Of a stretch of 58,873 nucleotides of DNA, positions 13,840 to 39,143 are shown one piece after another. The stretch comes from a virus (taxonomy: Duplodnaviria > Caudoviricetes): positions 1 to 58,873 of IMG/VR virus record IMGVR_UViG_3300043036_000281, one strand, 5' to 3'. The position numbers and the translations under genes are program-made. The stretch's first letter is position 1; every line of letters begins with the position of its first letter. Under the pieces are notes generated by a model. It was given only the letters and a program-made list of their open reading frames with translations. It was not told the origin of the DNA and made no database searches.

Positions 13840-14999
13840 GCTGTAGCCTCGACAACAACCGTCCCGTCATTGACCGAGCGAATATTGGATTCCATATCCA
13901 TCGTCGGCGTTGCCGAAAGCACGTCCATACCAACCAGCAGCTTCATGGCGCTGCGTGCTTCAGGTGTTTGCGTGATCGGCGTGCTGGCGCTCGGTGCCAA
14001 CTTGTAGAAAGGGTTCTCGAAGCGCAGCGGCGACAGTGGACGCCCGCCGGAAATCGAGGAACAGTTGCTCGCACCGTACCAGTCGGAATAATTCGGGTAT
14101 TTCTTGCCGCCGCCGAAAGCGTTTTTCAGCAAGCACAAGGCATAAGTGAAGGCGCCGCCGATTTCCATGATCCTGGATTTGACGAACGTGCCAAGGGACT
14201 GGACCGAGGCCACGCTCGCCATGATGTTGCGGCCGGCCTGGGCCAGGTCAGTGGCGATCGACATCAAAGGTCCGGCCACCTCATCAAACGATCCCTTCAA
14301 GGAGCTGATCGTCTCGACCGTTACCGCCAGCACGTTGGCCGTCAGGTTCATGAAGGAACGAACCGCGGCGCCGATCGTACCGTTGATGAAGTTGCCCACG
14401 GTGGTGGCGAAGTTGCGGATACGGCCCAGGATCTCCCGGAGCGTTTTCAGCGCCTCGGGAACGGCCACGTCACCCGGCAAGATCACTGGCGGCCTGAGTT
14501 TGTCCTTGAGCTCCACCAGGTCTTCTGACAGCACCAGCATGCTGATCTGGTATTGCATCAGCAGCGGGCTCTGTTTGTTACGACGCAGCGTGAAGGCCAT
14601 CGGGGCCACCACGTACACGAAGTCGTCGAGCAGATCGGCAAAGATCAGCTGAATCAGCTCAGGGTCACGCCCGGCAGCAATCGCTAGACGGCGTTTCTCA
14701 TGCCAGCTCTTGAACACGGTGTTGTTCAGTGTCTTGAACGCCTCGACCCCATCCTCCAGATAACTGCCACGCCAGCCGGTATGACCGTTGATGTTCACCT
14801 GGCGAATGCCTGGCCCCCAGTTATCCAGCCAGGCCCCGCCGAGCGTCTGCTGCACAGTGGCGCGCGACGGCTCCACCCGCGTCAGATCAGCTGGGCGGAT
14901 GTTCAGTGGGACGCTGGTCAGGTCGTTGCCATTGCTCAGATCCTGGAGCAGGAAGCTGATCGGGCGAACGGCTGATTTCTGGGACGATGGTGTGCTCAT
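13836..14999 (-). CDS. Tail tube initiator/baseplate hub-associated protein
   Basis: QTLGGAW.D.WG.G...I.G.TG pattern; position in the tail module. Confidence 0.55.
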   Translation of the reverse strand: MSTPSSQKSAVRPISFLLQDLSNGNDLTSVPLNIRPADLTRVEPSRATVQQTLGGAWLDNWGPGIRQVNINGHTGWRGSYLEDGVEAFKTLNNTVFKSWHEKRRLAIAAGRDPELIQLIFADLLDDFVYVVAPMAFTLRRNKQSPLLMQYQISMLVLSEDLVELKDKLRPPVILPGDVAVPEALKTLREILGRIRNFATTVGNFINGTIGAAVRSFMNLTANVLAVTVETISSLKGSFDEVAGPLMSIATDLAQAGRNIMASVASVQSLGTFVKSRIMEIGGAFTYALCLLKNAFGGGKKYPNYSDWYGASNCSSISGGRPLSPLRFENPFYKLAPSASTPITQTPEARSAMKLLVGMDVLSATPTMDMESNIRSVNDGTVVVEATA

Positions 15000-15005
15000 G
15001 ACAGG

Positions 15006-15021
15006 ATGGTGCTGTCACGAC
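15006..15021 (-). promoter_or_regulatory. Late-promoter-like motif, predicted leaderless
   Basis: GTCGTGAC-AG-CACCAT-6 nt-ATG(14999). Confidence 0.65.
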
Positions 15022-15049
15022 AAGCGGTGCAATTACTTTGTATGTGCAG

Positions 15050-15078
15050 TTGCAAAGATATACATCTGCGACTATATT
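15050..15078 (+). promoter_or_regulatory. Sigma70-like promoter of the inserted operon
   Basis: TTGCAA-17 nt-TATATT. Confidence 0.65.
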
Positions 15079-15117
15079 TAAGTTGTAGGTAAGAAGAACG
15101 ACGCGGAGGAAGAAGAG

Positions 15118-15312
15118 ATGAGCAACTACAAAATGTGCGACGGTTCGAAGCTAGATCACAAGAAAACAAAGGTTGGTGGCGAGTTCGTATACCGGGGCTA
15201 CACGCTGACTAAGGATCGGATTTTGGGTTACACCACCAAGGAAGACAAAAGCCTGTTTGCTCATCGCGAAGTTAGCTTACTTCTGACCATCAACGCTCGT
15301 CTCGACGCCTAA
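15118..15312 (+). CDS. Small hypothetical protein (64 aa)
   Basis: GGAGGA RBS; first gene after the promoter. Confidence 0.65.
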   Translation: MSNYKMCDGSKLDHKKTKVGGEFVYRGYTLTKDRILGYTTKEDKSLFAHREVSLLLTINARLDA

Positions 15313-15368
15313 TCTACCCGCCCGGGAAACCGGGCTCTTCACTGGAACGAACAACGGAGCAAGACGAG

Positions 15369-15518
15369 ATGACAGGCAAGAAATGGTTTTACTGGCTCGG
15401 CAAACTTCACGGGGGCCGCAAGCTTCAACGAGAGTCACGCCAATGGCCTACGTTTGCGCAAGAGGCGTATGGACGTGGTTGGTACGACGGCTTCAACCAA
15501 GTCAGTATTTCTGACTAA
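15369..15518 (+). CDS. Small hypothetical protein (49 aa), not in the ORF track
   Basis: MTGKKWFYWLGKLHGGRKLQRESRQWPTFAQEAYGRGWYDGFNQVSISD; GGAG upstream. Confidence 0.55.
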   Translation: MTGKKWFYWLGKLHGGRKLQRESRQWPTFAQEAYGRGWYDGFNQVSISD

Positions 15519-15535
15519 CCAACCCCGCCCACCTC

Positions 15536-15556
15536 AAGCCCCTTAACTGGGGCTTT
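15536..15556 (+). terminator. Hairpin, weak terminator or processing site
   Basis: AAGCCCC-TTAACT-GGGGCTTT. Confidence 0.4.
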
Positions 15557-15582
15557 GCCAGTACCACCACGTAGGATCTGAA

Positions 15583-15726
15583 ATGCTCGATCGCCGCCAC
15601 AGCCACGGAGTACGAACCACGGATATTTCCCTGGGCTACATCCGCATGCTGGAGCCGCAGTTCGTGGTAGTTCAGTGGTACATGTTCGGCGACCACGGAG
15701 ACTTCTGCCCGGTCGAATTCAGGTAA
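15583..15726 (+). CDS. Small hypothetical protein (47 aa), not in the ORF track
   Basis: MLDRRHSHGVRTTDISLGYIRMLEPQFVVVQWYMFGDHGDFCPVEFR; AGGA RBS. Confidence 0.45.
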   Translation: MLDRRHSHGVRTTDISLGYIRMLEPQFVVVQWYMFGDHGDFCPVEFR

Positions 15727-15751
15727 ACAGCAGACCATAAGGATACGCATC

Positions 15752-22176: not shown

Positions 22177-22202
22177 GGAGTAATCCTTTTTATCACTCAT
22201 GG

Positions 22203-22225: not shown

Positions 22226-22244
22226 CAGATCAGGTGGCCGACGG

Positions 22245-22670: not shown

Positions 22671-22682
22671 TTTCTACGCCCC

Positions 22683-24401
22683 TTACGCGGTTGCGCTGCC
22701 GCTGAACGGCACCGCGAAGATGGTGACAGGAATGTAGTTCACCGGAATGACTGGGCTGCACTGGAACTCAACGCGCAGAACGTCGCCCTCGATGGACACC
22801 GTGATGTTTTTGTAAGCTGGGTTCTCGGCATCACCTGCCAGCACGCCAGGACCCTGAGGTTCCGACATGGCCAGTTGGCGCAGCGTGCTTTCGACGATCG
22901 TCAGGGCGCGAGCCATGGTGATCGGGTTGGCCTTTTCACCACGCAACACGTCCAGCGCGTTGCGCACGTTCCGCGAGGTGAAGTCCAGCGCCACACCGAC
23001 CGATTGCTCGACGCGGTTGTAGTTGTCGTTGATCAGCCAAGTGCTGATCGACTGCACAACCTTGAAGCCGGTCGCCACGTCCTCGACGCAGAGCACGCCG
23101 CCAGTGATCAGGCGATCAGTGTCGGTTGGGTTGCGCAGCTTGCGTTCCAGGCCGCGAACCTTCAGCGCTTTGTTGGTCATCGCGGTACCCGGGTTGGTGC
23201 CGCAGAACGCGCCACCGATTTGGGCCGCCAGGATGTACGGAGGGAACAACGTCAAGGCGCCATCGGCGTCATAGTCGTGGAAACCCAGGTGAACCAGCGA
23301 GGTACGATCGCTGTTCAGCGCTTTGGCCGCGGCAATCGCTTGATCATCGGTGGTGCCCAGGGCCATGCCACAGATCGAACGACGCTCCATGCGAGCAATG
23401 TTCGACATGTAGGCGCAGTGGGAGTCGGTCATGGCGTGAATCGACGGATCGGCACTCAGAGGAGTTACCCACTGGACATCCTCAGCCTGGAGCACTTCGT
23501 CGAAGGCATCCGACCATTCCTGGTTAGTCACCACACCATCCGAACCACCAGACAGGTAGGTCCAGTTGATGTTCGCCGGAGGCTTGCCAACACCCGCTAC
23601 ACGCTCGGCATCGACGAACCCTTCAGCACTGCCGTTGATGTAATCAACGAAGGCCTGGAGGTCAGCCTGTACGGTGTAGGCCGCCGTTTTGATGTCCTGG
23701 ACACTGATGTAATCCAGACCATTGAGCGCCGGCTTGTTGGCATTGCCATCGAGCACGGTTGCACTGAAGCCGCTTACTGCGTTGATACGATCGACCAGCT
23801 CCTGCACCGATTTGTAAGTTGCCAGATCGATGGTAGCCACGGTGGTCCCCGTTGGGGCCTGCAACACCACCGACGTGCCGGTGATGGACATCACGCCACT
23901 TGCTGCGCCGCCGACATACTGCACCTGGAGCGCGTCACGGTGGACGTCATCCTGAGAGTAGTAGTCGTTACCGCGCTGGGTTGTGACCTTCAAGCCACGA
24001 TTGGTGGCTGCCTCGATCTTGAACTTGACCTGGTTGGCCACCAGACCGTAATCGGTCGATTTGAGGTTGACCACCGGCGTCGGCGTCAAGTCGCTCAGCA
24101 CCAGCGTTGCCTGAGTGGCCGGGTTGACACGCACGAAAATGATGGTCGATGCGGCGCCGGTTTGCGACGACGGATCGAACGCCTTTTCGATGGCGGTCAG
24201 GCCCTCACCACCCTGCAGGATATTACGGGCTTCAGAAGGACTGCCGAAGCGCAATGCAGTATTGGGCTTGCCCGCCACCGATCGGCCGACGATCGCCTGA
24301 ACGTTGGCGACCGACAGGCCGCGGTTGAACATAGCGGAATCATCCACCACGCTCATGGTCGCCGGCGAAACCCACAACCGGCCATTAAAGAAAACAGGCA
24401 T
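22683..24401 (-). CDS. Tail sheath protein
   Basis: 572 aa; YLSGGSDG; C-terminal SPVIPVNYIPVT. Confidence 0.9.
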   Translation of the reverse strand: MPVFFNGRLWVSPATMSVVDDSAMFNRGLSVANVQAIVGRSVAGKPNTALRFGSPSEARNILQGGEGLTAIEKAFDPSSQTGAASTIIFVRVNPATQATLVLSDLTPTPVVNLKSTDYGLVANQVKFKIEAATNRGLKVTTQRGNDYYSQDDVHRDALQVQYVGGAASGVMSITGTSVVLQAPTGTTVATIDLATYKSVQELVDRINAVSGFSATVLDGNANKPALNGLDYISVQDIKTAAYTVQADLQAFVDYINGSAEGFVDAERVAGVGKPPANINWTYLSGGSDGVVTNQEWSDAFDEVLQAEDVQWVTPLSADPSIHAMTDSHCAYMSNIARMERRSICGMALGTTDDQAIAAAKALNSDRTSLVHLGFHDYDADGALTLFPPYILAAQIGGAFCGTNPGTAMTNKALKVRGLERKLRNPTDTDRLITGGVLCVEDVATGFKVVQSISTWLINDNYNRVEQSVGVALDFTSRNVRNALDVLRGEKANPITMARALTIVESTLRQLAMSEPQGPGVLAGDAENPAYKNITVSIEGDVLRVEFQCSPVIPVNYIPVTIFAVPFSGSATA

Positions 24402-24657: not shown

Positions 24658-25485
24658 CTACGGCACGTTTACAGTTAATTCAACGTCGATGATTTCATCC
24701 TGTTTGCTGACGATCTGAACCGGTGCCACACAGGAGAAACTGCCAACGCTTTTGTAAATAACGGTGTTCTTTTCGCCGTGCGGCTCTTCGGTGTCAGACT
24801 GGCTCAGGTCGATCTGAATCATCCCAACGCTGTCGAATACCGGAAGGTTGGCGATAAGCACACGGCGAATGGCTTGCCGCAGTGATGCCCGTTCGATCGC
24901 GTTCTGCGACCAGCCGATAATGTCCAGGCGTACACGGGACAACCAGCCTTCACCGACTTCCCAGTCATCACCATCAAACTCATCTGGCGCCAGCGTTTCG
25001 CCTATACCGCGCCCGTCAGAACCATCCGACGACAAATGTACTGTCACGACAGGCCATGCAATTTCTTTCTGAAATGGGAACGCTGGGAGCACTGGAATGC
25101 GGTTGTTCGGGTGCTTGAGTTTGCCGCGCTGGAGCTCGACAAATAGACCCTGATTAAGCCGGTCGAGCACCACGGTTAGGACATCGTCCGTGACCTCCTG
25201 GTAGTCAGAGGTCACCGTGACCGGAACTGTCGCCGAGCCGGACCAGGTCGTGGCGGCCAGGTAGTAAACCCGATAGAAATAGGTGCTCGTATTGGTCAGC
25301 GCAGTACGATCGACCGCACTGATGGTTTGCTTGCTATCCAGCACAACCAGTGCTGCCGGATCGTCCTGACCTGTAAAGGTGTCCGTAGCTTTACGCAGCA
25401 GGCGCCAGCGCGTTGCGCCAGCTGGAGGCGATAGGACAATGCGAACGGCATTGCCAATGGCGAGGGATTGCGCGAATGAGATCAT
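24658..25485 (-). CDS. Tail terminator/completion-like protein with an N-terminal FnIII-like part
   Basis: Position; YFYRVY; start chosen at 25485 (MISFAQSL) from the promoter motif. Confidence 0.6.
   Translation of the reverse strand: MISFAQSLAIGNAVRIVLSPPAGATRWRLLRKATDTFTGQDDPAALVVLDSKQTISAVDRTALTNTSTYFYRVYYLAATTWSGSATVPVTVTSDYQEVTDDVLTVVLDRLNQGLFVELQRGKLKHPNNRIPVLPAFPFQKEIAWPVVTVHLSSDGSDGRGIGETLAPDEFDGDDWEVGEGWLSRVRLDIIGWSQNAIERASLRQAIRRVLIANLPVFDSVGMIQIDLSQSDTEEPHGEKNTVIYKSVGSFSCVAPVQIVSKQDEIIDVELTVNVP
25035..25050 (-). promoter_or_regulatory. Intragenic late-promoter-like motif
   Basis: GTCGTGAC-AG-TACATT inside the CDS, oriented toward the sheath/tube genes. Confidence 0.4.
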
Positions 25486-25492
25486 GGGCAGG

Positions 25493-25508
25493 ATGATGCG
25501 GTCACGAC
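25493..25508 (-). promoter_or_regulatory. Late-promoter-like motif, predicted leaderless
   Basis: GTCGTGAC-CG-CATCAT-7 nt-ATG(25485). Confidence 0.65.
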
Positions 25509-25511: not shown

Positions 25512-25527
25512 ATCGTGACGCGAACAT
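25512..25527 (+). promoter_or_regulatory. Late-promoter-like motif, predicted leaderless
   Basis: ATCGTGAC-GC-GAACAT-6 nt-ATG(25534). Confidence 0.6.
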
Positions 25528-25533
25528 GGCTAC

Positions 25534-26388
25534 ATGGCCTACTTCAACATTAACGTCGATTTGTCCGAACTGATGAACCTTGCCCCGAACCTGAGCAAGG
25601 AGATCTTCCCGCGCCTGCACGAGGCTGTCGGCGCTGTCGCTGCAGCGGCCCACCGGGATTGGACGGCCGCGGTGATGAATGCCCCGCTATGGTCGAAGGA
25701 ACGCCAGGAATACGCACGATCGATCACCTGGGACTATAAAGGTGCATTCTCCGCAGAAGTGGTCGCCACCTACAAGAATGCTGAAGCGATCGAAACCGGG
25801 CGCGCAGAACGCGACTTGAAAAAGATGCTGGATACCAGCCTCAAGGTGCGCCGGACTGCCAGCGGCAAGCGATTCCTGATTATCCCCTTCCGCCACAACA
25901 CGCCAGGAAACAACGCCAGTGGCAATGCAATGCCGTTCGCCGTCTACCAACAGGCGCGCGACCTGGCCAAGTCATTGATCGTTGGCAAAGGCGAGCGCCT
26001 GGCCGGACACACCGTGCACCTGATCCCCGGGGCCGGCATGGTGGTCGCTCGCAAGCAACCAGAATTCGCCTCAGATCCGAGCACCAAAGGTCGCGCCATG
26101 GTGCCGTCCAGGGATTATCGCTGGGCCGGCGCACTCAAAAGCGGCGACCTGGCCAAGCACGGGAAAGACGTTCAGAACCGGTATGCGGGTATGGTCCGCA
26201 TGGAATCGAGCTCGGGCGTCGAAAGCCGCAGCTCGTACATGACGTTCAGGGTGATGATGGAAGGCTCTAGCGGCTGGATCATCCCGGCGAAGCCTGGCCT
26301 GTTCCTCGCCAAGCAAGTCGCCGAACGCATGACGCCGCTCGCTGAAGAAGTGTTCCATGAAGCGGTGAAGCTGGATCTCGGCGGTTAA
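25534..26388 (+). CDS. Probable neck/tail-completion protein, inverted relative to its neighbours
   Basis: Basic 284-aa protein; IE.G...DLK, FLIIPFRH, YMTFR, GWIIP; stop overlaps the convergent gene. Confidence 0.6.
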   Translation: MAYFNINVDLSELMNLAPNLSKEIFPRLHEAVGAVAAAAHRDWTAAVMNAPLWSKERQEYARSITWDYKGAFSAEVVATYKNAEAIETGRAERDLKKMLDTSLKVRRTASGKRFLIIPFRHNTPGNNASGNAMPFAVYQQARDLAKSLIVGKGERLAGHTVHLIPGAGMVVARKQPEFASDPSTKGRAMVPSRDYRWAGALKSGDLAKHGKDVQNRYAGMVRMESSSGVESRSSYMTFRVMMEGSSGWIIPAKPGLFLAKQVAERMTPLAEEVFHEAVKLDLGG

Positions 26389-28688: not shown

Positions 28689-30134
28689 TTAAACGGTGAA
28701 TGGACGCCAGACTGCGCCGTTTGGCACGATGTTTTTGATCACAACGTGGTGCTTGCGCTTGGCGATCCGCAGGTAGCCGAACATCAGCTGGGCCCAAGGA
28801 ATTACCGCGCTCACGGTTGGGTACAGCGGGAACTTCAACATCGGCAACAGCTGGCGCCAGTTGATCGCGGAATCGCCTGGGTTGCAGTTGAGGATGTAGG
28901 CGCTGGTCGAGCCCGGGATGTCGCGGTTGAGGTCGGTGTACACGGTGCTTGCACCGGTGCGAGCGACACGCGCCATCTGACGGAAGTCAGTGACAGTGTT
29001 GGTGCCGTTCTGGCGACCACGGTAGATCACGTAGCCAGTTTCAGCGCCGCCGACCGATTGAGCGATGGTCAGAGCAACCTGTTTGCCCGCTGCTACCGTC
29101 ACCTGGGAAGTGATAACCCCGGTGGACTGGCCTTTGGCGTTGATGCCAGTAACCAGGTAGTAGTAGTTGCCAGCACGCGCCGCAGTGAACTGGGACGAGG
29201 CGTTGTCAACGGTCGCGACCGGGGTCACGCTCGCAGGCTTGAAGGTGTCGTTCGCCACAGCCAGAGCCGAGAAACCAACCTGGAACGGCAGTTGCTGCGC
29301 TTCGTCACGGATGAACACGTCCGGCACGGCTGCGATGTTGCCCCAGCTGGTACGGATGCCGGAAACCGGCGAACCCAGCATGATGCTGTTCGGCTGGTTA
29401 TCCAGCGCTACGCGCCAGGCCGGATCGAGGCCGGTGTCGAAGTCGCTTTGAGTCGACTGGGACATGAACAGGTGAGTCGGCGTACCGAAGTTGCCGTAGC
29501 CACTGATGGTGGCGGCCGCTTTGTTGATCAGGTCAACAGAGGCCAGGCTCGCGCCTTGGGCGTCCAGGACGTGATCCGAGCTACCGAGGCTTGCGATCTG
29601 CACTTCGATGCCGTCGAACTCGGTGTTAACCACCGAAGAGTCGCCTTCGAAGCACAGGAACTCGGCGTCGGTCAGCAGTTGCTTGGCGCCGTTTTGCTGC
29701 TCGACAGCTTCCGAGTCAGCAATGGTGTTTTGCAGCGATTGAACCAGGGTCACTTCGCGACGGGTCATCAGGTACTTCACAGTACCTACGCGACGAGCAT
29801 AGTCGCCGGTTGCCGCGGCAATGGTGCCGGATTCAGTGTTGGTCGAACCGCCCAGGAAACCACCGACGCCGGACTGTTCAGTCCATTCGTCCACGGTCGC
29901 CGTTGCGTTGCCCTTGGCGATCAGGTTGAACAGGCGGAAGTGCTTGTTCTCCTGGATGGTCGCCATCATGGTTTTATCCAGGGACTGGATACGCAGCGCG
30001 CCACCACCGGTGAGCGTGGCAACGTCGGTGCCGTAACCGGCTTCGAGCGCTTTACGCAGCTCGGCGACGCTTTCCATTTGCATACCGCCGGTGGTCGAAG
30101 AACCGGCGGCCAAATCTGGCAGATTGATGTTCAT
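28689..30134 (-). CDS. Major capsid protein precursor
   Basis: KAL.AGY...GGGALR.QSL N-terminus; E..CF.GD....EFDG; inserted beta domain. Confidence 0.85.
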   Translation of the reverse strand: MNINLPDLAAGSSTTGGMQMESVAELRKALEAGYGTDVATLTGGGALRIQSLDKTMMATIQENKHFRLFNLIAKGNATATVDEWTEQSGVGGFLGGSTNTESGTIAAATGDYARRVGTVKYLMTRREVTLVQSLQNTIADSEAVEQQNGAKQLLTDAEFLCFEGDSSVVNTEFDGIEVQIASLGSSDHVLDAQGASLASVDLINKAAATISGYGNFGTPTHLFMSQSTQSDFDTGLDPAWRVALDNQPNSIMLGSPVSGIRTSWGNIAAVPDVFIRDEAQQLPFQVGFSALAVANDTFKPASVTPVATVDNASSQFTAARAGNYYYLVTGINAKGQSTGVITSQVTVAAGKQVALTIAQSVGGAETGYVIYRGRQNGTNTVTDFRQMARVARTGASTVYTDLNRDIPGSTSAYILNCNPGDSAINWRQLLPMLKFPLYPTVSAVIPWAQLMFGYLRIAKRKHHVVIKNIVPNGAVWRPFTV

Positions 30135-30174: not shown

Positions 30175-30828
30175 TTAGGCCATTACTTTGGCGCGAATAT
30201 CCGCAGGGATTTCGATGCCGCGGTTCAGATACGACTCGGCACGCGCCACGTCCAGGCCGGAGAGTTTCCCTTGCTCCTGGAGAGTGAGTGCTTTCGCCAT
30301 GAATTCAGCAGGACCCATACCGGTCGGCTCGGACTTCGCCAGGGTAGCCGGATCAACTTTGTCGACCAGGGTCACGGCGGTTTTACGACCGCGGCCAGCA
30401 TTGGCCAGACGGGTTACGTCAGCCTGCAGGGACTTGATCATGTCGCCTTGGGTTTTGATGGTGCCCACGGTGATTTCCAGGGCCTTGGTCAGAGCAGTTT
30501 CAACACCGTCCTGGCGTGCGCCGAGGGCCTTCAGCAACTCGGTGGCATCGAAGGCTTCAACCTTGGTGCCGTCGTCAAGAGTCAGGTCGAACGATTTGCC
30601 CATGGCTTCATCGCCTTCCTTCTTGATGACAGGCTTGCCGGTTTTATCGTTGGTGCCGTCGTCATCCAGATCGCCATTGGCCTTGTCGTCGGCGGCATTG
30701 GCGATGTTTTGGTCATCGGCCTTGTCGTCGTTCGGGGCATAGGATTTCTGCATCACTTCGCCTTCGTCTTTCAAGGCGTTCAGGTCAGCGATCAGCGCGT
30801 CAAACGGATTTGCAGTAGTGCCAGTCAT
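30175..30828 (-). CDS. Scaffolding-like protein
   Basis: Acidic/coiled-coil, between protease and capsid; many K-A/K-S sites. Confidence 0.65.
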   Translation of the reverse strand: MTGTTANPFDALIADLNALKDEGEVMQKSYAPNDDKADDQNIANAADDKANGDLDDDGTNDKTGKPVIKKEGDEAMGKSFDLTLDDGTKVEAFDATELLKALGARQDGVETALTKALEITVGTIKTQGDMIKSLQADVTRLANAGRGRKTAVTLVDKVDPATLAKSEPTGMGPAEFMAKALTLQEQGKLSGLDVARAESYLNRGIEIPADIRAKVMA

Positions 30829-31739
30829 GATTTACTCCGGTTTTTCAGCTCGGTATTAAGGTCGCGCATGAAGCGCTCTACGGTTTTCGCCGCTTCATCC
30901 AGCGACACTCCGAACGTCTTGGCGGCATACTCAACGAGTTGTCGCGCGCCAGGGTTCTTACCGGCACTCCCGTTTTTGAGGGCGCTGGCGAGTTTGTTGC
31001 GGAAGTCCCAGTAGTTGGCTGGAGCTCCGTGCAGGCTTTGGGTGCGCATGGCCCCGCCGCCAGTAAGCGTTGCCGAGTCGGTGCCGTAACCGGCTTCCAA
31101 CGTCTTGGCCATGACAAAACCGTTCAACGCTTTGGCGAAAACGCCAATCGGAGCGGTATTGATTTCGGAAACTGTTTTGTTGACCGGGCAGCGATCGAGG
31201 GCGATGTTGTTCCAGCGCACTTCCTCAATCACAGCAACTCGCTGCTGGGTCTTCGGATCGAACTGGACGGACTTCGACAGGACCGCGCCACCTACGGACG
31301 GATACCAGCGCATCGGCGGACTCTGTGACGTCAGCGTCTCCCAGACCATATTGGCGTTACGCGCCTGGGGCGAGTCGCCACGGTAAAGCTGGGCCTTCAC
31401 GAAGGTCTTCTTGCCATCCATCCTGACCGCCACCGGCTTGCCGATTTCGTATTCAAGATGGTTCGGGATGCCGGCTTTCGGCCCCATGATCGAGTAGTGC
31501 GACAGGTCGATGTTGCCGTGGCGCAGGTAATACTCAGAAGAGGCCTTGAGCGCCTTTTGCAGAACGATTTCATTCTGGTGGTCGACGTCCTCATTGCTGG
31601 CTTCCAAATAGATGAAGCGCTCCCCGTCCTCGCTAGAGGCGGTTGCTTTGAGCAGTCCACCCACGCTGATAAAGCCGGGGACTTCTGCTAGCAGTTCTTC
31701 ATCATTCGCGGTCAACGTCGTTGCACCTATATCGTTCAT
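30825..31739 (-). CDS. Prohead protease
   Basis: AS.E.VD...E, GNIDLSH, SVGG, P.N motifs. Confidence 0.75.
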   Translation of the reverse strand: MNDIGATTLTANDEELLAEVPGFISVGGLLKATASSEDGERFIYLEASNEDVDHQNEIVLQKALKASSEYYLRHGNIDLSHYSIMGPKAGIPNHLEYEIGKPVAVRMDGKKTFVKAQLYRGDSPQARNANMVWETLTSQSPPMRWYPSVGGAVLSKSVQFDPKTQQRVAVIEEVRWNNIALDRCPVNKTVSEINTAPIGVFAKALNGFVMAKTLEAGYGTDSATLTGGGAMRTQSLHGAPANYWDFRNKLASALKNGSAGKNPGARQLVEYAAKTFGVSLDEAAKTVERFMRDLNTELKNRSKS

Positions 31740-31746
31740 GGCCTGA

Positions 31747-31762
31747 ATTCTGCTGTCACGAC
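31747..31762 (-). promoter_or_regulatory. Late-promoter-like motif, predicted leaderless
   Basis: GTCGTGAC-AG-CAGAAT-7 nt-ATG(31739). Confidence 0.65.
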
Positions 31763-32016
31763 TGCGAGCCAGTCTTTTGTCGTGTTGCCTGTTGCGTTGT
31801 CACGAGCTGACCACGCTCCTGCACCAGGGCCATGTATTCATCTGCCGCGTCGCTATCGAGGATCACATTCGGGCGCAACTCGGCCAGCATCTGGTCGACC
31901 TTGGCCAGACGATCGCCAGCCGATTGGCCGATGCGATCGTCAGAAGCCTGGACACGCGCATGTAGGCCGGCGACCTTGGCCAGCTGCTTGTGCACGTTGT
32001 CGATGGTGTCGCGCAT
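31756..32016 (-). CDS. Hypothetical helical protein (86 aa)
   Basis: MRDTIDNVHKQ...; own promoter motif upstream. Confidence 0.6.
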   Translation of the reverse strand: MRDTIDNVHKQLAKVAGLHARVQASDDRIGQSAGDRLAKVDQMLAELRPNVILDSDAADEYMALVQERGQLVTTQQATRQKTGSQS

Positions 32017-32043
32017 AAAAAATCCCCGCTCAGTGGCGGGGAT
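32017..32043 (-). terminator. Intrinsic terminator after the methylase, overlapping the next promoter
   Basis: ATCCCCGC-CACTGA-GCGGGGAT-TTTTT. Confidence 0.65.
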
Positions 32044-32057
32044 CATGAAGTCACGAC
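32042..32057 (-). promoter_or_regulatory. Late-promoter-like motif
   Basis: GTCGTGAC-TT-CATGAT. Confidence 0.6.
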
Positions 32058-32064
32058 TTGAAGG

Positions 32065-33348
32065 TCAGATCAGAGAGAGCTGACTCGATTCATCCTTGGC
32101 GAACTGCTGGGCGTACAAGATGCGCGCCTCAGCCATTGCCAGATAGGATTTGTCATTGTCGATGCCGATGAAGTTGAAGCCTTCCAGCATGGCGGCCTTG
32201 CCCGTGCTGCCGGAGCCGACGAACATATCCAGCGCCGTCCCACCAGGTGGCGTCACCAGGCGCAAAAGGTAGGCCATCAGGTCAGTGGGCTTGACTGTCG
32301 GGTGCGTGTTGCCTTTCAGCTCTGCGTTTTCAACCATACGCAAAGTGGTCCCCTGCTTGAACTGGGCCCCGGGATTCAACATGCCTTCATGCCGATCGGT
32401 GCGGCTGGTCTTCGCGCAGTAATAGAAGCGCGCCGCACTGCCACTGTCACCATGGAAAGCACCGGCCACTCGTTCGATCATGCCGCTGTACTTTACGTTT
32501 CCGCTGAATCCGTTGGCGGTCGGCTCAGTGCCAAGGACCGGCGCCGATGCACCCGCCTCAGCCGGAAACATCGCCACCACTTCAGCACAACCGTCGTGAA
32601 TCAGGTTCGCTGGCCATCGTCCGGAAGGCTGGACATATTCCCCCGCAGACGCGCCGATCACATTCAATCCGCTACCCTGGCGCATGGCCGAGGACACCGA
32701 CCGACGCCCACCTTCGGTGTACGCGCCGCCGTTCAAATCTTCTTCGGTTGAGATTCGGCAAGCGTCGACGTTCAGCGCACCCACGCCATGCTCGAGCATG
32801 TTTTCCGCTACGGTAGCCGGGAATGGCTTGCGCGCCATGCAGATCGGCTCGTGTGCCGGCTTGAGCGCAGTGCCCCAGCCTTCATGGTCGCCCTTGAGGT
32901 TATGCGACTTCGGGAAGCCGGAACCGAACACCCACATGATCTGGTCGCGGATCTCGAAGCCGGCCATTTCAATCCCGACCGCCAGGTGGTGATAGGTGCG
33001 CGGCGAAGCGAAGGACAACAGGTGACCGCCAGGCTTGAGCACCCGCAGCGCTTCACTCGCCCACTCGAATGTGAAAGCCTGAAATGCCTTCATGCCACCA
33101 GGTGTCAAGTCGTACTTTCCAGCTTCAGCGGCGCGCGAGTTGTGCCCGCCTGTTTCGCCGGCGGCGAGCGCCTGTGACGGCATGCTTGATCGATACGCCG
33201 TGCGCTCTTCGATGTCCTTGCCATCCCAGGCCTTACCCATAAATCTGATCCCGTAGGGAGGGTCTGTGCAGATGCTGTCGATTGAGTTGTCAGCCAACGT
33301 GCGCATGACCTCAATGCAATCGCCCAGGTGCAGCGTGTATTCAGCCAT
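32065..33348 (-). CDS. DNA methyltransferase, beta class (N6-A/N4-C)
   Basis: DPPY before HPTVKP and DMFVGSGSTG. Confidence 0.9.
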   Translation of the reverse strand: MAEYTLHLGDCIEVMRTLADNSIDSICTDPPYGIRFMGKAWDGKDIEERTAYRSSMPSQALAAGETGGHNSRAAEAGKYDLTPGGMKAFQAFTFEWASEALRVLKPGGHLLSFASPRTYHHLAVGIEMAGFEIRDQIMWVFGSGFPKSHNLKGDHEGWGTALKPAHEPICMARKPFPATVAENMLEHGVGALNVDACRISTEEDLNGGAYTEGGRRSVSSAMRQGSGLNVIGASAGEYVQPSGRWPANLIHDGCAEVVAMFPAEAGASAPVLGTEPTANGFSGNVKYSGMIERVAGAFHGDSGSAARFYYCAKTSRTDRHEGMLNPGAQFKQGTTLRMVENAELKGNTHPTVKPTDLMAYLLRLVTPPGGTALDMFVGSGSTGKAAMLEGFNFIGIDNDKSYLAMAEARILYAQQFAKDESSQLSLI

Positions 33349-33349
33349 C

Positions 33350-34111
33350 TTAATCATCCCCGTCATAGCAGCCGCATGGCATATCGGCTGGCTGGTCAAA
33401 CATTGTCATTTGCTCTTGGTGCGAGCGCAAAAGGTCAGCCCAACGCCAGCGACGGCCCAGGCCCTTGATCGAGGTCAGGTCGGCATTCTCTTCCATCTCG
33501 ATGGCGCGCAACTTCAGTTCAGGAGGCAGCGCCAGGATTTCGGGGATCTTGCTGTTCGGGCAGAAGAAACACGAACTCTTACCTGGAAGCGGCAGACCAG
33601 CAGCGCGGATCGAGTCAATGCACTCGTCGCGCCCCATGTCCCACTCGATCAACGGGTAACGCCACAGGTATTTTTTGCTTTCCTGGAACCGCGCAGCACG
33701 GTGCGGCTCGCCCGCGTCATAACCGATGCACTTCACAACCTGGATGCCGGCCGCCCATGCCTCTTTGGCCGGCGCCCAGTTGTTGGCGAACTTCTCCTGA
33801 GGCTCAACCTTGAACCGCTGCGAACAGGTCTTGAAGCCGTAGGCAACGCTCGGTAGCTGTTTCAGTCGCAGCAGCACCTGTTCCAGGGTTTCGACGGTTC
33901 CGCCTTTCTTAACCACAGTGATGGGCGGCATCCCGTGGGCAACCAGCCAAGCACTTAATATCTCCAGGTAGGCGTAGGTTTCAGGACGCTCGCCACCAGT
34001 GTCGGCGAAGGTGATGACATCCACCTTCTCGCAGCGCTTGACCATCTCGACCAGCATCGCAGTGCTGTTGGTTCCAAGGCCGCAACTGACCATGATCGGT
34101 CGATCAAGCAT
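33350..34111 (-). CDS. PAPS-reductase-family (PP-loop) protein
   Basis: SCGLGTNS, FADTG.E, C...FK..P, GYD..E..R, YPL, KSSCFFCP, C-terminal PCGC. Confidence 0.8.
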   Translation of the reverse strand: MLDRPIMVSCGLGTNSTAMLVEMVKRCEKVDVITFADTGGERPETYAYLEILSAWLVAHGMPPITVVKKGGTVETLEQVLLRLKQLPSVAYGFKTCSQRFKVEPQEKFANNWAPAKEAWAAGIQVVKCIGYDAGEPHRAARFQESKKYLWRYPLIEWDMGRDECIDSIRAAGLPLPGKSSCFFCPNSKIPEILALPPELKLRAIEMEENADLTSIKGLGRRWRWADLLRSHQEQMTMFDQPADMPCGCYDGDD

Positions 34112-34514
34112 TGGCGGCAAGCTCCTGCTTGATCGCGCGCTGGATGAACTTCGGAATACGCGGGGCTCGAACGAACACTGTCGGGCACGGGAGTACTTCA
34201 ACCGATTCGTATACGGGGATTTCCAGGCGGACCGCTTCGATGATCTCGCCGATGGTGCCGCTGGACATCTGCCAGCCTGGGCAAAGCACGACCGCATCAC
34301 AGCGGCGCATCAGCTCCATGGTTGCATCGAGCCAAAACTGCTCATCGCCTGGGCGAATGACTTCGTCCATGTGCGCGGTGTTCATGTGAGGGATGATCGG
34401 CGAATAGCCCTTCTGGGCGACCAGGCAACCGACCTTCATCGACGACTGAATATTGAGTTGAATGCCTGCGCGCGTGGCGTGGCGATATGGACCAGCAACA
34501 TAAATCACTTTCAT
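34104..34514 (-). CDS. Nucleoside 2-deoxyribosyltransferase-like protein (DUF4406/DUF1937-like)
   Basis: IYVAGPY...CDAVV...GW..S.G...E. Confidence 0.75.
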   Translation of the reverse strand: MKVIYVAGPYRHATRAGIQLNIQSSMKVGCLVAQKGYSPIIPHMNTAHMDEVIRPGDEQFWLDATMELMRRCDAVVLCPGWQMSSGTIGEIIEAVRLEIPVYESVEVLPCPTVFVRAPRIPKFIQRAIKQELAANA

Positions 34515-34567
34515 CAGCTCGGCTCCCCGTTTTATTAGTCAGGCTGCATTATTATGCAGCCGTAACA

Positions 34568-37500
34568 TTAAAACAAGCTGCCGGACTGCTCTTGTTGTCG
34601 ATCACGGCGCTGCTTGAGGAAATACGCCAGGCCACTATCATCCAGGCCTTCGAGCGGACTGGTGACCAGGTCACGCAGTGCGTATTTCGTCTGGAGCCTG
34701 GCCCTGTCCGCCCGTTCCATCGGATGATCGGCCACCAGGTCAGCCAGCTCGACGTCGTTCTTCTGCCCGGTGCGGTAGATCCGGCCTTGCCGCTGGGCAT
34801 GGGTCATAGCTGTTTCCGGCGTGTCGATCGCCGTCAACCACTGACCGCGCTGAATGTTCATGCCGGTCGCCGCCGCATCGGAGGCTACCAGGATATCGGC
34901 CTGGGCTTCTGCACCACCCTCAGGGTTGAACATCTGCCGCTTGGCCTCCTTTTCCTTCGAGCTGTCGGCGCCGGTGATTGTCGCCACCCGGAAGCCTTCT
35001 TTTTCCAGCCTGGCTTTCAGAATCGCCACACCCTCGAGCGAGCGTGTGAAGAACACCCCGGGCTTACCCTTGCGCTCACGCGCATAGTTCACCGCGGCCT
35101 CAAACTTGGCGCCGTCCGGATGGTTGTTGATCACCCGGCGCACGGCCGGACGTTTAAGCAAGCCGATGTTCTTCTGCAGGGCCTTGGCGATTGCTTCGTG
35201 CCTCTCCTCAGGCACACCCGCGAACTGTTCCGGCGCCAGGGCCTTGGCCGACTCGATATCGACGCGACCACCCATGCGCGCCAGGCGCAGAGCCAACGCG
35301 TGACGGTCGATCTTTTCCAGTTCGGTTTTCTGCTGGTCGTTGAGCTGGACCTTGATCTCCTGGCGATTGGCGCCGGTTTCAGGGTCAATCTTCGACGGGT
35401 AGAAGTAGCGCGCCATTTCCCGGCGCAACGAATCCTTGCTTGCCGCGGTGTCGACGCCGTATTTACGCATGAAGGTATCGCGGTCCATGTAGTTGCCGCC
35501 GGCCAGCTTGGTCATGGCGTCGTGCAACTCGGACAGGTCATTCTTGACCGGGTCCGCGGTGGCGCTCACGAAGTACTCGCTGTTGTCCGTAGCGGCATCG
35601 ATCACATTGGCCATGCCGCTGTCTTCTTTGCCTTTTCGGTTCAGCGTGTTGTGCCCTTCGTCGACCATGATGTACTGATGGTCGATGCCTTCCTTGTCCA
35701 TCACGGCGCGGATCCAGGCCTTGCGATCGCCCCGGCTCATTTCGCCCAGCTTCTGGCTCATCTGGTCCTCAGGAATCCCCGCGTGCTGCGCTCCGAGTTT
35801 CACCATGTCATCGCGAAACGATTGGTGCGTCACCACGGTGAAACTGTTTTCCGGATCCTTATAGGCCTGCAAACGCGACTCGAACGACGCGCCGGGCTCC
35901 GCATGCCACTTGAATTTGCCAGGCTCCAGGTAGCGCAGCGCCTCACCGCCGAACTGGCCCTGGACGATCGATGGCACGACAAACAAACCCTTCTTGATTT
36001 TGCCCTGCTCGTGCAGGTGCGAGAAGCCGCCCAGGCCGATCGCGGTTTTACCCGTGCCGACGCCGAACGCCAGACCGACCCGCTTGTTCGCATCGAGGAG
36101 CTTGATAGCGCGCTGCCGCGGCGCCCCGGACCCGCTCATCGTTGGCTGCCACAGTTTCAGCGCCTGGCCCGGTTTGAAATTCTTTCCCACGACGGACATC
36201 ATGCTGGCGATTTTCTGCTCGGCGGCATGGCCCAGGGTATAGCGCTCATCAGCACCAAGCGCCTTTTCCTGTTCGGTGGCGGGCATTTCCTCAGAGGAAA
36301 ACATCCCGAGCTGCGACTGCTCGAAAGCGGCCTGCTGTTCCCGCTGCTGATCCAGCTTGTCGATCACGCTGCCACTGGCGTACTTGCCGCCGACGCGCTC
36401 GCGCAGACCATCACGCAAGGCAGTTTCCTTCGCCTCCCTGGCGGCCCGTGCTTTAGGATCGACCGTGTCCAGGTGGTCCAGGTTGTTGCGGATCACCGTG
36501 TGGCCGAGTTTCAGTGCACCCTTCGGGTTGAGCGTGTTGTAATTCTCGTGAAAGCCTTTCGCGATCTTCGAGCGGATCAGATCCTGGGCCGCTTCGTAAG
36601 CCTTGGCTGTGCTGCCCATGGCCTTGACGTATTTGCCCCAACTCAGGCTGCTGCTGTTGTGCTGGGCAGCCAGGTCATCACGCTCGGACTTCCAGGCCAG
36701 CCACTCAGGGTTATTCGCCTGCTCGCCAAACATATCGGTGACATGCTGCTCAGGCTCATTCGCCACGAGCGCGTCCAGCTTCTGCCGGATCTCCCCGGCC
36801 TCGGGCGACTCATGCGCAACCTCACGAGCGAAGTACTCCCGTAGCGCGCGCTGGTCTTTGTGATCCAGTTCGCCGATCGGCTTGTACGCGGCTACCCCGG
36901 ATGGCTCGGCCGACAGGGCACGGTGCAACGCATCGACAGACGTCTGGTCCATGTCGAACTGCTGACGATGAAGCGGCGTCAGATCAGCGCCGTAGCGTTT
37001 CTCGACGAACTCGTCTGCCATTTTCTCGAACGACGATTGCAGCGACTCGTTCCGAATCTGCTTGCCGTCTGCATCCTGGGCGGGCGCCAGCTTATCCAGC
37101 GCCTGCATGTATTGGTCACGGCGATCGCCAGCCTTCTGCATGAACGTCTCGGACTGCAAGTCGGCGACGATATCGGCAGGCGAATCACCATCAGCTGCAC
37201 GCCCACCAATGTAATCGGCCAGCGACTGTTCAGCGTCAGCACCAACCTCGAACGGGATGGCCAGTTTCGCCGCGACGCCCGGTTTCGGTTTCAGGTCCAG
37301 ATCTGGCCGGTTGGCAAAACCCTTAGGAAGCCATTGGTCTTCGTCCTGCTTGCCTTCGATGATGTCCAGGTTCCGGCGGATCTGCTGCATCGATTCACGG
37401 TCGACCGGCTCGGCCAAGCGATCCATGCCGCTGGCGGTGATGGTCAGGAAGGTTTGCCCGCCGACGGGATCGATTGAGTAATCACCGCGTTGCAAACCAA

Positions 37501-39121
37501 GCGCGCGCGCCTGGCGGATGATCGCCTCCGGCTGCGCCTTGCCCATGGGAATTTCCAGCTTATCGGCCGGCTTGTCACGCAGTGCTTGTACCAGCGCAGC
37601 GTTGGCTTCCATTTCACCGGCAGCGGTACCGAGGATACGCGTCGATTCATTCAGTGCATCCCGGCGCCGTGCGTTTATCTCCTGGAGCGCTGCCAGGTCA
37701 CCGCCATTGTCAGCAGTAGGCAGCGTCATACTTTCGACTTGATCCGTCAGCGCTTTGGCCTCATCCAAGGATTTCTTGGATAGGTCCATGTAATGGTGCT
37801 GGTGGAAATCTTCCATGCCTTCGGCGACTTGAGCCATTTCATCCGGCGTCAGATCGGTATGCAGCCGGCGAGCCAGGACCGAAGCGGCACCGGCCACGCC
37901 GAGCACGTCAACGGTGCTACGATCCATCAGGCCTGCGCCCGTGGCCGCCAGCGACAGGCTATTGATCGAGTTGAACGCGCCACTGGCAACGTGGGAGCCG
38001 ATCGACTTTTCAGGCACCTTGCCGGCTTCGCTCAGGAAGTTTCGCGTGCGGATGGTGCGCAGATCGTTGACCACTTGGCTCTCTACCGCACTGTCAACAT
38101 CGGCGGCGTCTACTTCGAGCACGTAGGCCTTAGGTTCGACATTGGATTTTTCCACGCTCTTCAGCGCGTCAGAGGCTTTCTTGCGGGCTAGGTCGAGGCG
38201 CTTTTTCGCCTTCATCAGCTCGAGCGCTTTATCCGCTTCCACCAGGTGCGCTTTGAGTCGATCGGTTTTCTCTGCGTCATCCTCGCGAACACCCTGCAGC
38301 TCCTGTTTCACCAGCTTGGCCGACTGCCCGCGGTTGATCGCTGCTTTGCGTTCGCCTTCGGACATCTGCGCCTGTTTCTTTTCGCGAACCTGGCCGGCTT
38401 CCTTTTCCAATTCAGGATCAGTCAGTCCGGCCTCTTCGGCACGCGCTTTATATTCAGGGGAGAAACCCAGTCCCGTGGACGGGCCCGCAGCCTGGTCCAG
38501 GTCGGCCACTGAAATGCTGTCGGGATCATCAGGCTTGTAGGTGGCGCCGCCGATGTTCGCCTGTTGGCGCGCTTCGGAATCCATCGCCAGGCTTTGACGG
38601 TTCAGGTCGTAGGCTTCATTCGCTTTCTTCACCAGCTCGCGATGGTGCTCACGCGCCAACTTGGTCACGGCCGCCGGCGACAGATCCGCATGTTTCTCTT
38701 CGTCGAAGGCCAGATCCTTTTCATCCCAGCCCATGACCTTGGCTGTTGCTTTGACGTATTCACGCTCCTCGGCGTGTGTCTGTTCCTTGATCTCCTTGCG
38801 GACTTTGGCTTTCGATCCGGCAATGCCAGCCTCTTTATCCTTGGCCCGCTGCGCAGCCACCGCCTGCTTTTTCGCCTCGCGGTTGGTTTTCTCTTTCTCG
38901 CCGGACTCTTTCTTGTACTGCTCTTTCGACTTTACGCCGCGGAGCTTCAAGTGGTTGAGTTTGCCACCGGCACCGCCGATCACGGACGCAGAGCCGTCCG
39001 GATTCTCACGCACGAGCACGGGCGAACCCTTCTCGGCGCCTGGGGCCTTGACGGTAATCCAGCGCTCGCCTTCAGCGAGGGCCTTCAGGAAGATGAGGCG
39101 GTGCGTGATATTTTCGGTCAT
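34568..39121 (-). CDS. 1517-aa polyvalent protein with a C-terminal SNF2-type helicase
   Basis: GVGTGKT, VDEGH, SATA.P..N, TGMNIQ, QRQGRIYRTGQ; about 1000-aa helical N-region. Confidence 0.85.
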   Translation of the reverse strand: MTENITHRLIFLKALAEGERWITVKAPGAEKGSPVLVRENPDGSASVIGGAGGKLNHLKLRGVKSKEQYKKESGEKEKTNREAKKQAVAAQRAKDKEAGIAGSKAKVRKEIKEQTHAEEREYVKATAKVMGWDEKDLAFDEEKHADLSPAAVTKLAREHHRELVKKANEAYDLNRQSLAMDSEARQQANIGGATYKPDDPDSISVADLDQAAGPSTGLGFSPEYKARAEEAGLTDPELEKEAGQVREKKQAQMSEGERKAAINRGQSAKLVKQELQGVREDDAEKTDRLKAHLVEADKALELMKAKKRLDLARKKASDALKSVEKSNVEPKAYVLEVDAADVDSAVESQVVNDLRTIRTRNFLSEAGKVPEKSIGSHVASGAFNSINSLSLAATGAGLMDRSTVDVLGVAGAASVLARRLHTDLTPDEMAQVAEGMEDFHQHHYMDLSKKSLDEAKALTDQVESMTLPTADNGGDLAALQEINARRRDALNESTRILGTAAGEMEANAALVQALRDKPADKLEIPMGKAQPEAIIRQARALGLQRGDYSIDPVGGQTFLTITASGMDRLAEPVDRESMQQIRRNLDIIEGKQDEDQWLPKGFANRPDLDLKPKPGVAAKLAIPFEVGADAEQSLADYIGGRAADGDSPADIVADLQSETFMQKAGDRRDQYMQALDKLAPAQDADGKQIRNESLQSSFEKMADEFVEKRYGADLTPLHRQQFDMDQTSVDALHRALSAEPSGVAAYKPIGELDHKDQRALREYFAREVAHESPEAGEIRQKLDALVANEPEQHVTDMFGEQANNPEWLAWKSERDDLAAQHNSSSLSWGKYVKAMGSTAKAYEAAQDLIRSKIAKGFHENYNTLNPKGALKLGHTVIRNNLDHLDTVDPKARAAREAKETALRDGLRERVGGKYASGSVIDKLDQQREQQAAFEQSQLGMFSSEEMPATEQEKALGADERYTLGHAAEQKIASMMSVVGKNFKPGQALKLWQPTMSGSGAPRQRAIKLLDANKRVGLAFGVGTGKTAIGLGGFSHLHEQGKIKKGLFVVPSIVQGQFGGEALRYLEPGKFKWHAEPGASFESRLQAYKDPENSFTVVTHQSFRDDMVKLGAQHAGIPEDQMSQKLGEMSRGDRKAWIRAVMDKEGIDHQYIMVDEGHNTLNRKGKEDSGMANVIDAATDNSEYFVSATADPVKNDLSELHDAMTKLAGGNYMDRDTFMRKYGVDTAASKDSLRREMARYFYPSKIDPETGANRQEIKVQLNDQQKTELEKIDRHALALRLARMGGRVDIESAKALAPEQFAGVPEERHEAIAKALQKNIGLLKRPAVRRVINNHPDGAKFEAAVNYARERKGKPGVFFTRSLEGVAILKARLEKEGFRVATITGADSSKEKEAKRQMFNPEGGAEAQADILVASDAAATGMNIQRGQWLTAIDTPETAMTHAQRQGRIYRTGQKNDVELADLVADHPMERADRARLQTKYALRDLVTSPLEGLDDSGLAYFLKQRRDRQQEQSGSLF

Positions 39122-39127
39122 GGCCGC

Positions 39128-39143
39128 ATGGTGCGGTCACGAC
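39128..39143 (-). promoter_or_regulatory. Late-promoter-like motif, predicted leaderless
   Basis: GTCGTGAC-CG-CACCAT-6 nt-ATG(39121). Confidence 0.65.

Follow-up and report, generated by a model that had tools for sequence, protein, structure and literature searches.

Start codons on the predicted first base of a putative promoter class shared by a phage family

How does a phage gene begin when its ATG lies six or seven nucleotides behind a -10-like hexamer and has no Shine-Dalgarno (SD) sequence? The question is posed by five genes in the uncultured-virus record IMGVR_UViG_3300043036_000281 (IMG/VR). The whole stretch of 58,873 bp is referred to below as the window; its completeness is estimated at 64%, its G+C content is ~58%, and PHROG scans identify a contractile-tailed phage. 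The initial annotation had proposed that the genes starting at 14999, 25485, 25534, 31739 and 39121 are late, that their messages are leaderless, i.e., start on or next to the A of the AUG, and that a variant tRNA-fMet at 42508 joins them in one coupled programme of late translation. Leaderless mRNAs are regarded as rare and weakly translated in Gammaproteobacteria and Betaproteobacteria. The analysis presented here confirms the observation and generalises it to a phage family. We consider it likely that the five ATGs stand on the predicted first base of a promoter class specific to this family, with first-cistron messages that are predicted to be leaderless and probably late. The link to the tRNA is not supported as a requirement.

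A probable promoter motif that ends at the start codon

At all five sites the ATG is found 6-7 nt past a -10-like hexamer (cAnnAT), as initially described. Beyond that description, each ATG is preceded by one shared element of 15 bases, TCGTGAC-NN-cAnnAT, before which a G usually stands, and the octamer GTCGTGAC is positioned 2 nt upstream of the hexamer at the five sites.

14997..15021, minus strand: promoter and start codon of the virion-protein/baseplate operon; G 15021, TCGTGAC 15020-15014, ag, CACCAT 15011-15006, 6-nt spacer cctgtc, ATG 14999-14997 (gene 13836-14999, 387 amino acids, aa)
25483..25508, minus strand: promoter of the sheath/tube unit and start codon of its leading 275-aa gene; TCGTGAC 25507-25501, cg, CATCAT 25498-25493, 7-nt spacer cctgccc, ATG 25485-25483
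25512..25536, plus strand: divergent partner promoter and start codon of a 284-aa gene (25534-26388); TCGTGAC 25513-25519, gc, GAACAT 25522-25527, 6-nt spacer ggctac, ATG 25534-25536
31737..31762, minus strand: promoter and start codon of the prohead protease gene; TCGTGAC 31761-31755, ag, CAGAAT 31752-31747, 7-nt spacer tcaggcc, ATG 31739-31737
39119..39143, minus strand: promoter and start codon of a 1517-aa helicase-like protein; TCGTGAC 39142-39136, cg, CACCAT 39133-39128, 6-nt spacer gcggcc, ATG 39121-39119

The five genes do lead operons, as had been stated; the unit names that went with this statement were partly guesses. The gene at 25485 leads the sheath/tube unit, and the product of the gene at 25534 has no known function. 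The prohead protease gene leads a unit of protease, a 217-aa protein and the major capsid protein. Between the divergent ATGs at 25485 and 25534 lies a gap of 48 bp which is wholly occupied by both promoter cores, 5 bp apart.

The window was searched with the pattern TCGTGAY-N2-NANNNT, using 200 first-order Markov shuffles as the null. Twelve hits were obtained, compared with a shuffle mean of 0.8 (maximum 4). Five of them have an ATG at motif position 22 or 23; here the shuffle mean is 0.015 (maximum 1). All hits except one are on the minus strand (11/12). In three uncultured relatives, G001, G002 and G003, the forward/reverse counts of the bare heptamer TCGTGAC are 17/2, 2/14 and 2/12, respectively, as against 13/9, 7/8 and 2/2 for the reversed controls.

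The anatomy of the element was read from 99 unique sites. At positions which the search pattern does not impose, G prevails at -1, in front of the heptamer (77%), A at hexamer position 5 (67%) and C at position 21 (57%). Position 22 is A in 56% and G in 2%; the A is present at leadered sites, too. The invariant A at hexamer position 2 is fixed by the search pattern and is no evidence. Upstream of -1 the conservation stays below 45% at every position, i.e., there is no -35 element. The element has the form G-TCGTGAY / N2 / cAnnAT / N6 / A. When the hexamer is set at -12 to -7, the octamer covers -22 to -15 and position 22 becomes +1. The box carries a -35-like TGAC, which at 1-2 bp from the -10 is too close for sigma70 to bind in its normal geometry. 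A search for sigma70-type promoters upstream of the five ATGs gave no match on the coding strand.

The absence of a Shine-Dalgarno sequence at the five ATGs is borne out. Paired with a generic anti-SD tail, the 17 nt before the ATG give duplex energies of -2.1 to -2.4 kcal/mol at four sites, compared with -5 to -12 kcal/mol for most other genes; the site at 25485 was judged by eye. The downstream cistrons carry ordinary SD sites. Leaderless mRNAs require a 5'-terminal AUG. In the eight genomes described below, the start codons of the 43 sites which head an open reading frame (ORF) are 43 ATG, 0 GTG and 0 TTG, an exclusive use which fits this requirement.

The start codons themselves are correctly assigned. 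The alignments of PHROG profiles begin at residues 4-16 of the site-led proteins and at the first 4-14 profile positions; the alignment of PHROG 1011 to the 387-aa protein begins at residue 4. The N-termini are kept from residue 1-2 across relatives, e.g., MI(S/A/K/T)(F/M) of the 275-aa protein in 8/8 genomes. Further, wherever the ATG is at position 22, its frame is closed six codons before it by the TGA of the motif.

Conservation in relatives and the leaderless reading

The capsid protein of the window is ~45-52% identical to that of ~90-kb phages of Pseudomonas (Touem01, Dolphis, Jeremy), Morganella (Mecenats66), Bordetella (PHB04), Aeromonas (ST4) and enterobacteria; identity to the capsid protein of the Thermus Lalka phages is 36%. 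Cultured members are at hand, with P. putida (Dolphis, Jeremy), P. syringae (Touem01), Aeromonas (ST4) and Bordetella (PHB04) as hosts. Two sets were compared. The first comprises eight genomes, i.e., the window, G001, G002 and G003 (two complete and one partial, with DNA identities of ~83-90%, 72-88% and 65%, respectively) and the cultured phages Touem01, PHB04, ST4 and Dolphis. The second consists of 33 near-complete IMG/VR relatives of at least 80 kb each; 166 relatives were found in all.

Motif, hexamer, a distance of 5-7 nt and the ATG are kept at orthologous genes in all seven relatives fetched, three uncultured and four cultured, down to a capsid identity of ~50%, while the spacer bases vary. 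For the five window genes the arrangement is preserved at 5/5 in G001 and G003 and at 4/5 in G002, which is without the helicase site. The site at 14999 has orthologous sites in G001, G002, G003, Touem01, PHB04 and Dolphis, and the divergent pair has orthologous pairs in G001, G002, G003 and Touem01. The helicase orthologues of PHB04 and G003 are likewise of the leaderless type; that of G001 has a 5-nt spacer and follows a terminator. As a side observation, it is a run of C between -10 and ATG of this gene that is one base shorter in G001 (14665-14687; 5 nt) than in the window (39122; 6 nt), and the same one-base deletion is present in a contig from a public run. Of four runs labelled RNA-Seq which were compared with the window, the single one of raw reads gave 0 reads and the others gave contigs, from which transcript starts cannot be read.

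The prohead protease gene is the most instructive case. In Touem01, PHB04, ST4 and Dolphis the order is terminator, GTCGTGAC-NN-hexamer, 6-7 nt, and the annotated ATG. In G003 a terminator is again located upstream, and nothing else before the ATG is common to this site and the window. All in all, an intrinsic terminator within tens of bases before the motif is seen at the protease genes of G003, Touem01, PHB04, ST4 and Dolphis and at the helicase gene of G001. These upstream terminators, the 48-bp divergent gap and the lack of a sigma70 match on the coding strand leave little room for another promoter.

Motif copies number 15 in Touem01, 16 in PHB04, 10 in ST4 and 12 in Dolphis, with reversed controls of 0. 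ORF-heading sites, which have the A of the ATG at position 21-23, make up 8/15, 8/16, 3/10 and 5/12 of them, respectively, and 43/102 in the eight genomes together. All 33 IMG/VR relatives possess leaderless-type sites, 2-11 per genome and 213 in total, as against 0 in each genome with the reversed pattern; in these counts ORF-heading was checked for G001 and G002. The proposal that the transcripts are leaderless is well supported by this comparative evidence: the geometry is kept at orthologues, an A occupies position 22 even at leadered sites, and 43/43 start codons are ATG.

The following mechanism may be envisaged. The hexamer would be read as a weak -10 by the sigma70 RNA polymerase of the host, and the octamer (~-22 to -15) by a phage factor, which may be an activator, a protein that remodels or replaces sigma, or a small sigma encoded by the phage. 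This factor would substitute for the -35 contact and set the start point. Where the ATG falls on +1, as it does at 5/12 sites of the window and at the 43 sites above, the first cistron of the operon would be translated leaderless, by direct binding of the 70S ribosome and fMet-tRNA to the 5'-terminal AUG, as in lambda cI. The motif class is probably late because the genes behind it encode virion, tail and baseplate proteins, serve capsid maturation or are cargo (DarB-like, helicase-like).

Several points weigh against this account. The leaderless start is predicted from sequence alone, from a -10-like hexamer 5-7 nt upstream, and the hexamers CACCAT, CATCAT, CAGAAT and GAACAT are poor -10 elements. 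The designation as late is derived solely from gene function. When the window and the part of G001 beyond it were scanned with Pfam and PHROGs, neither a sigma factor nor a known late activator came to light; the only such match is in G001, where a protein of 240 aa (L048:5649-6371) has weak similarity to a helix-turn-helix (HTH)/Sigma70_r4 domain, below cut-offs. A homologue of the P1 late activator Lpa was not found by tblastn against the eight genomes (best E-value 1.9), nor was there an Lpa-like PHROG match. The placement known from P1 (box, 4 nt, -10) would put the start 4 nt inside the genes; the geometry must therefore differ from P1, the only characterised look-alike. The ATGs at 31739 and 39121 follow the end of an upstream same-strand ORF at a distance of 16-27 nt, and read-through transcripts in which these ATGs are internal may also be present. 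Lastly, the protease genes of the enterobacterial phages Mecenats66 (L059 ~1190-1264) and ECML-606-1 (L063 ~1260-1331) have the same motif followed by an SD leader; in ECML-606-1 a two-codon ORF, ATG-TTT-TGA, is situated on the old +1 position, and SD and annotated ATG follow. Leaderless starts are therefore not obligatory, and the two cases suggest that they were lost in the hosts of these two phages. Among the genes of G001 which tblastn found kept in at least 4 of 5 more distant genomes there was no small regulator; these genes are structural, or concern replication and packaging, and a few are of unknown function.

Two other readings of the motif have to be considered. In the first, a phage sigma-like factor would melt the DNA at the octamer itself, which would be its -10-like element; transcription would start ~6-8 nt after the octamer, inside cAnnAT, and SD-less leaders of ~7-12 nt would result. 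The octamer is indeed much better conserved than the hexamer, a -35 is lacking, and the A at hexamer position 2 could serve as the start purine. Such short leaders leave several features unexplained, viz. the A which occupies hexamer position 5 in 67% of sites without being demanded by the pattern, the A at position 22 of leadered sites, which is almost never replaced by G, and the fixed distance of 5-7 nt between hexamer and ATG in 43 sites; moreover, the scans mentioned above yielded no sigma-like protein. We regard this reading as quite improbable. Extremely unlikely is an action of the motif on RNA, where it would mark long late read-through transcripts for processing or signal translation independently of an SD, for although the motif is always on the sense strand and the upstream ORFs end close to the ATGs at 31739 and 39121, sites are located directly past strong terminators or between divergent genes where no upstream transcript is expected, the -10-like hexamer is at promoter spacing, and leadered copies are 40-55 nt from their ATG with an ordinary SD in between.

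The predicted leaderless promoters are kin to known kinds, i.e., to factor-dependent late promoters without -35 and to leaderless mRNAs. For the motif itself, or for leaderless starts in proteobacterial members of the family, a full-text literature search found no published description, and the words promoter and leaderless are absent from the Mecenats66 paper.

The closest functional precedent is the Thermus phage Lalka27a. Short-RNA sequencing placed its 5' ends 6 nt past the -10; most transcripts are leaderless, including a distinct late class without -35 (10.64898/2026.04.20.719267). The authors proposed a phage factor, and divergent late promoter pairs adjoin the prohead protease gene (10.64898/2026.04.20.719267). 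The many late promoters without -35 in Lalka27a, and also in YS40, and the related capsid protein are shared features. There are differences, too. Lalka27a uses a TAGGGT -10 and a conserved C at -25, the present phages have GTCGTGAY (-22 to -15) abutting cAnnAT; 5' ends were mapped there and are predicted from the motif here; and the relatives of the window infect Proteobacteria, whereas in the Thermus host leaderless mRNAs are common.

The late promoters of phage P1 (LPmat, LPpro, LPlyz, LPdar, LPs, LPsit, LP26/LPpmgL and others), which are activated by Lpa, also lack a -35. They possess a GTGAC-containing box, AAGTGACTT, upstream of a TANNNT -10, and a GTGAC core is likewise present here; P1 has one divergent pair, too, and about a dozen copies before virion, lysis and Dar genes. 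The 9-bp inverted repeat AAGTGACTT centred near -22 of P1 is missing from the present sites, which have only the GTGAC core in common with it, within the box G-TCGTGAY and with other flanks. The spacer between box and hexamer is 2 nt here versus 4 nt in P1; at six P1 sites extracted, 19-86 nt with SDs separate -10 and start codon and none is leaderless; and the present phages have no Lpa homologue. A kinship with P1, suggested by DarB-like and Ulx-like genes and the GTGAC box, was rejected because of the few P1 protein matches (among 72 P1 proteins, DarB and one tail-fibre segment are the only ones matched in the window), the missing Lpa homologue and the other promoter spacing.

With lambda cI transcribed from PRM and with leaderless mRNAs of E. 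coli (PMC10491246), the sites share the predicted 5'-terminal AUG, the absence of an SD and a -10 located 6-7 nt upstream of the ATG. Those cases are single regulatory genes; here the first cistrons of structural and cargo operons are concerned systematically, in ~40% of one promoter class.

If the leaderless reading is correct, operons for capsid maturation, tail, baseplate and cargo seem to have their first gene expressed from leaderless mRNAs in a whole phage family, and the cultured members make this prediction directly testable. The promoter implies a transcription factor which, acting from a site next to the -10, takes the place of -35 recognition. In practical terms, start codons and operon boundaries can be read exactly from the motif in >100 related genomes. 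A still wider account would be that, throughout a ~90-kb proteobacterial myovirus family, a factor which reads GTCGTGAY at ~-20, out of reach of a normal sigma70 -35 contact, fixes +1, that the leaderless late strategy was inherited from a lineage shared with the Thermus phages, and that the tRNA is an optional booster or toxin-proof spare. The ATG of up to 11 operon-leading genes per genome would then be parked on +1 in hosts in which leaderless mRNAs are rare. As a whole we consider this account unlikely.

The initiator-like tRNA

The second element of the initial proposal was the tRNA gene.

42508-42584, minus strand: initiator-like tRNA-Met (CAU); ARAGORN, Rfam 67.8 bits, consensus cloverleaf

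The gene described as a variant tRNA-fMet is indeed a sound tRNA, initiator-like but deviant (U1:A72, A29:U41). Initiator tRNAs are distinguished by a 1x72 mismatch, three G:C pairs at 29-31:39-41 and A11:U24. The window copy has the CAU anticodon, A11:U24, G30:C40 and G31:C39, and its cloverleaf is close to that of the canonical PHB04 copy. It lacks the 1x72 mismatch (U1:A72) and the complete run of G:C pairs (A29:U41, followed by G30:C40 and G31:C39). In G001, G002 and PHB04 the sequences GGG/CCC are present at 29-31:39-41, and PHB04 is canonical, with C1xA72. Among eight phage copies position 1:72 is a mismatch in four (three CxA, one UxU), a weak A-U pair in four and a G:C pair in none. 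Of the three pairs, 29:41 varies most (GC 4, AU 2, CG 1, UA 1), one copy has an altered loop, and A11:U24 is kept as A:U in 6/8, including the window. All eight copies fit one cloverleaf, with compensatory changes in 11/20 pairs, which argues that the tRNA is under selection. As judged from these comparisons the gene is functional, fast-evolving and recurrent, and not tied to the promoter design.

Carriers of an initiator-like tRNA-Met are the window, G001, G002, G003, PHB04, G010, G013, G015, G025 and G026; in the window and in G001 it is the sole tRNA. Among the 33 near-complete relatives 14 have a tRNA over the Rfam cut-off and 19 have none, counts to which tRNAs below the cut-off or lost to a first-look filter may have to be added. 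By reading of the ARAGORN output, seven of the 33 carry the initiator-like species, with G025 and G026 being borderline; it is the commonest tRNA species (7 of the 14 tRNA-bearing genomes). In PHB04 (L071 6061-6432) ARAGORN also reports a permuted gene resembling transfer-messenger RNA (tag ANDDYIRAAA), which adjoins tRNA-Met, tRNA-Asn and tRNA-Pro. In the window a gene for an HU-type DNA-binding protein is located just downstream of the tRNA (41800-42075, minus strand; PF00216, E 5e-31).

What could such a tRNA be for? It might be an anti-defence spare, which replaces the host tRNA-fMet when VapC-type toxins cleave the initiator; owing to its altered anticodon stem it would be cleaved poorly, and leaderless mRNAs would not be involved at all. 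The variable positions do cluster in the anticodon stem (29:41, plus the one altered loop), and the patchy distribution of the gene is accessory-like. In one study, phage tRNAs are proposed to evade anticodon nucleases and VapC is stated to cleave initiator tRNA; the same study reports that Shigella phages mostly avoid encoding tRNA-fMet (eLife 2023, PMC10264068), which speaks against such a role. We regard this role as conceivable, though somewhat unlikely.

Leaderless initiation depends on fMet-tRNA and IF2. The initial annotation built upon this in proposing that leaderless late transcripts and the variant tRNA-fMet are one programme, in which the phage tRNA supplies the initiator for 70S-type initiation when SD-led initiation or the tRNA-fMet of the host is impaired. 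The recurrence of the gene in the family as the commonest tRNA species, its position as the only tRNA in the window and in G001, and a cloverleaf under selection are in line with this view. The distribution is not. Leaderless-type sites are present in 33/33 relatives and 26 of these have no initiator-like tRNA, 19 no tRNA over the cut-off at all. The mean number of sites is 6.3 with the initiator-like tRNA (n=7) and 6.5 without (n=26), the relatives in this comparison not being phylogenetically independent and the window being incomplete. Touem01 with 8 sites and Dolphis with 5 have no tRNA, and ST4 has no tRNA-Met. Two hallmarks of an initiator have been lost from the window copy, viz. the mismatch at 1x72 and the first of the G:C pairs, and no copy of the motif is found upstream of the window tRNA. 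A coupled programme is very unlikely, and the attractive link between a phage initiator tRNA and leaderless translation fails as a requirement. The tRNA appears to be a separate accessory, dispensable for the promoter design, which may still aid initiation.

Further motif copies and neighbouring genes

Besides the five copies at an ATG, the 12 copies of the window comprise four with a leader of ~20-30 nt and an ordinary SD, and the copies at 32056, 25049 and 8326.

10915..10960, minus strand: motif at 10959 before a tail-fibre unit; 21-nt leader, strong SD AAGGAGGG (-12.1 kcal/mol), ATG 10917
49246..49291, minus strand: motif at 49290 before the gene of a DarB-like 1982-aa protein; TCGTGAC gg CACCAT, 21-nt leader, ATG 49248
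51960..52004, minus strand: motif at 52003 before the gene of a conserved 389-aa protein; TCGTGAC cc CAAGGT, 20-nt leader with AAGGA as SD, ATG 51962
41293..41349, minus strand: motif at 41348 before a tail-fibre-related unit, just past a terminator-like hairpin; TCGTGAC gc CATGAT, leader, ATG 41295; the G002 orthologue is at 6126
32014..32057, minus strand: motif at 32056, the -10 and spacer of which overlap the 5' arm of a terminator hairpin (32044-32021), the strongest in the region
25035-25049, minus strand: motif TCGTGAC ag TACATT inside the gene 24658-25485, kept in G001 and G002
8326: TCGTGAT copy of the motif, preceding a tail-fibre assembly gene

The overlap of motif and terminator at 32056, with ATG 32016 as the likely start, is kept in G001 (21358) and G002 (82154). 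The hairpin would stop transcripts coming from upstream, and those started at the motif, being devoid of the 5' arm, would read through. The copy at 25035-25049 may serve as an internal promoter, or it may merely reflect conservation of the coding sequence. Close to the copy at 8326, three tandem ORFs of ~150 aa each (8341-9738, minus strand) match the C-terminal part of tail-fibre proteins and may be alternative fibre tips.

PHROG scans further assigned the following genes of the window, in addition to those of the 1517-aa helicase-like and the 1982-aa DarB-like protein, tail-fibre cassettes and an endolysin.

10964-13839: baseplate genes
22683-24401: sheath gene
28689-30134: major capsid protein gene
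30825-31739, minus strand: prohead protease gene

The block 32063-34112 contains genes for a DNA methyltransferase and a PAPS-reductase-like protein, together with part of a gene that resembles nucleoside 2-deoxyribosyltransferase genes. This block is skipped in the contig of a relative, and most of it cannot be aligned (~33065-34109 against G001, 31766-34102 against G002); it looks like a variable DNA-modification island. At 56909-58567 on the minus strand a 552-aa protein is encoded with a C-terminal Zeta_toxin/AAA_33 kinase-like domain, the G001 orthologue of which is located directly 3' of the portal gene.

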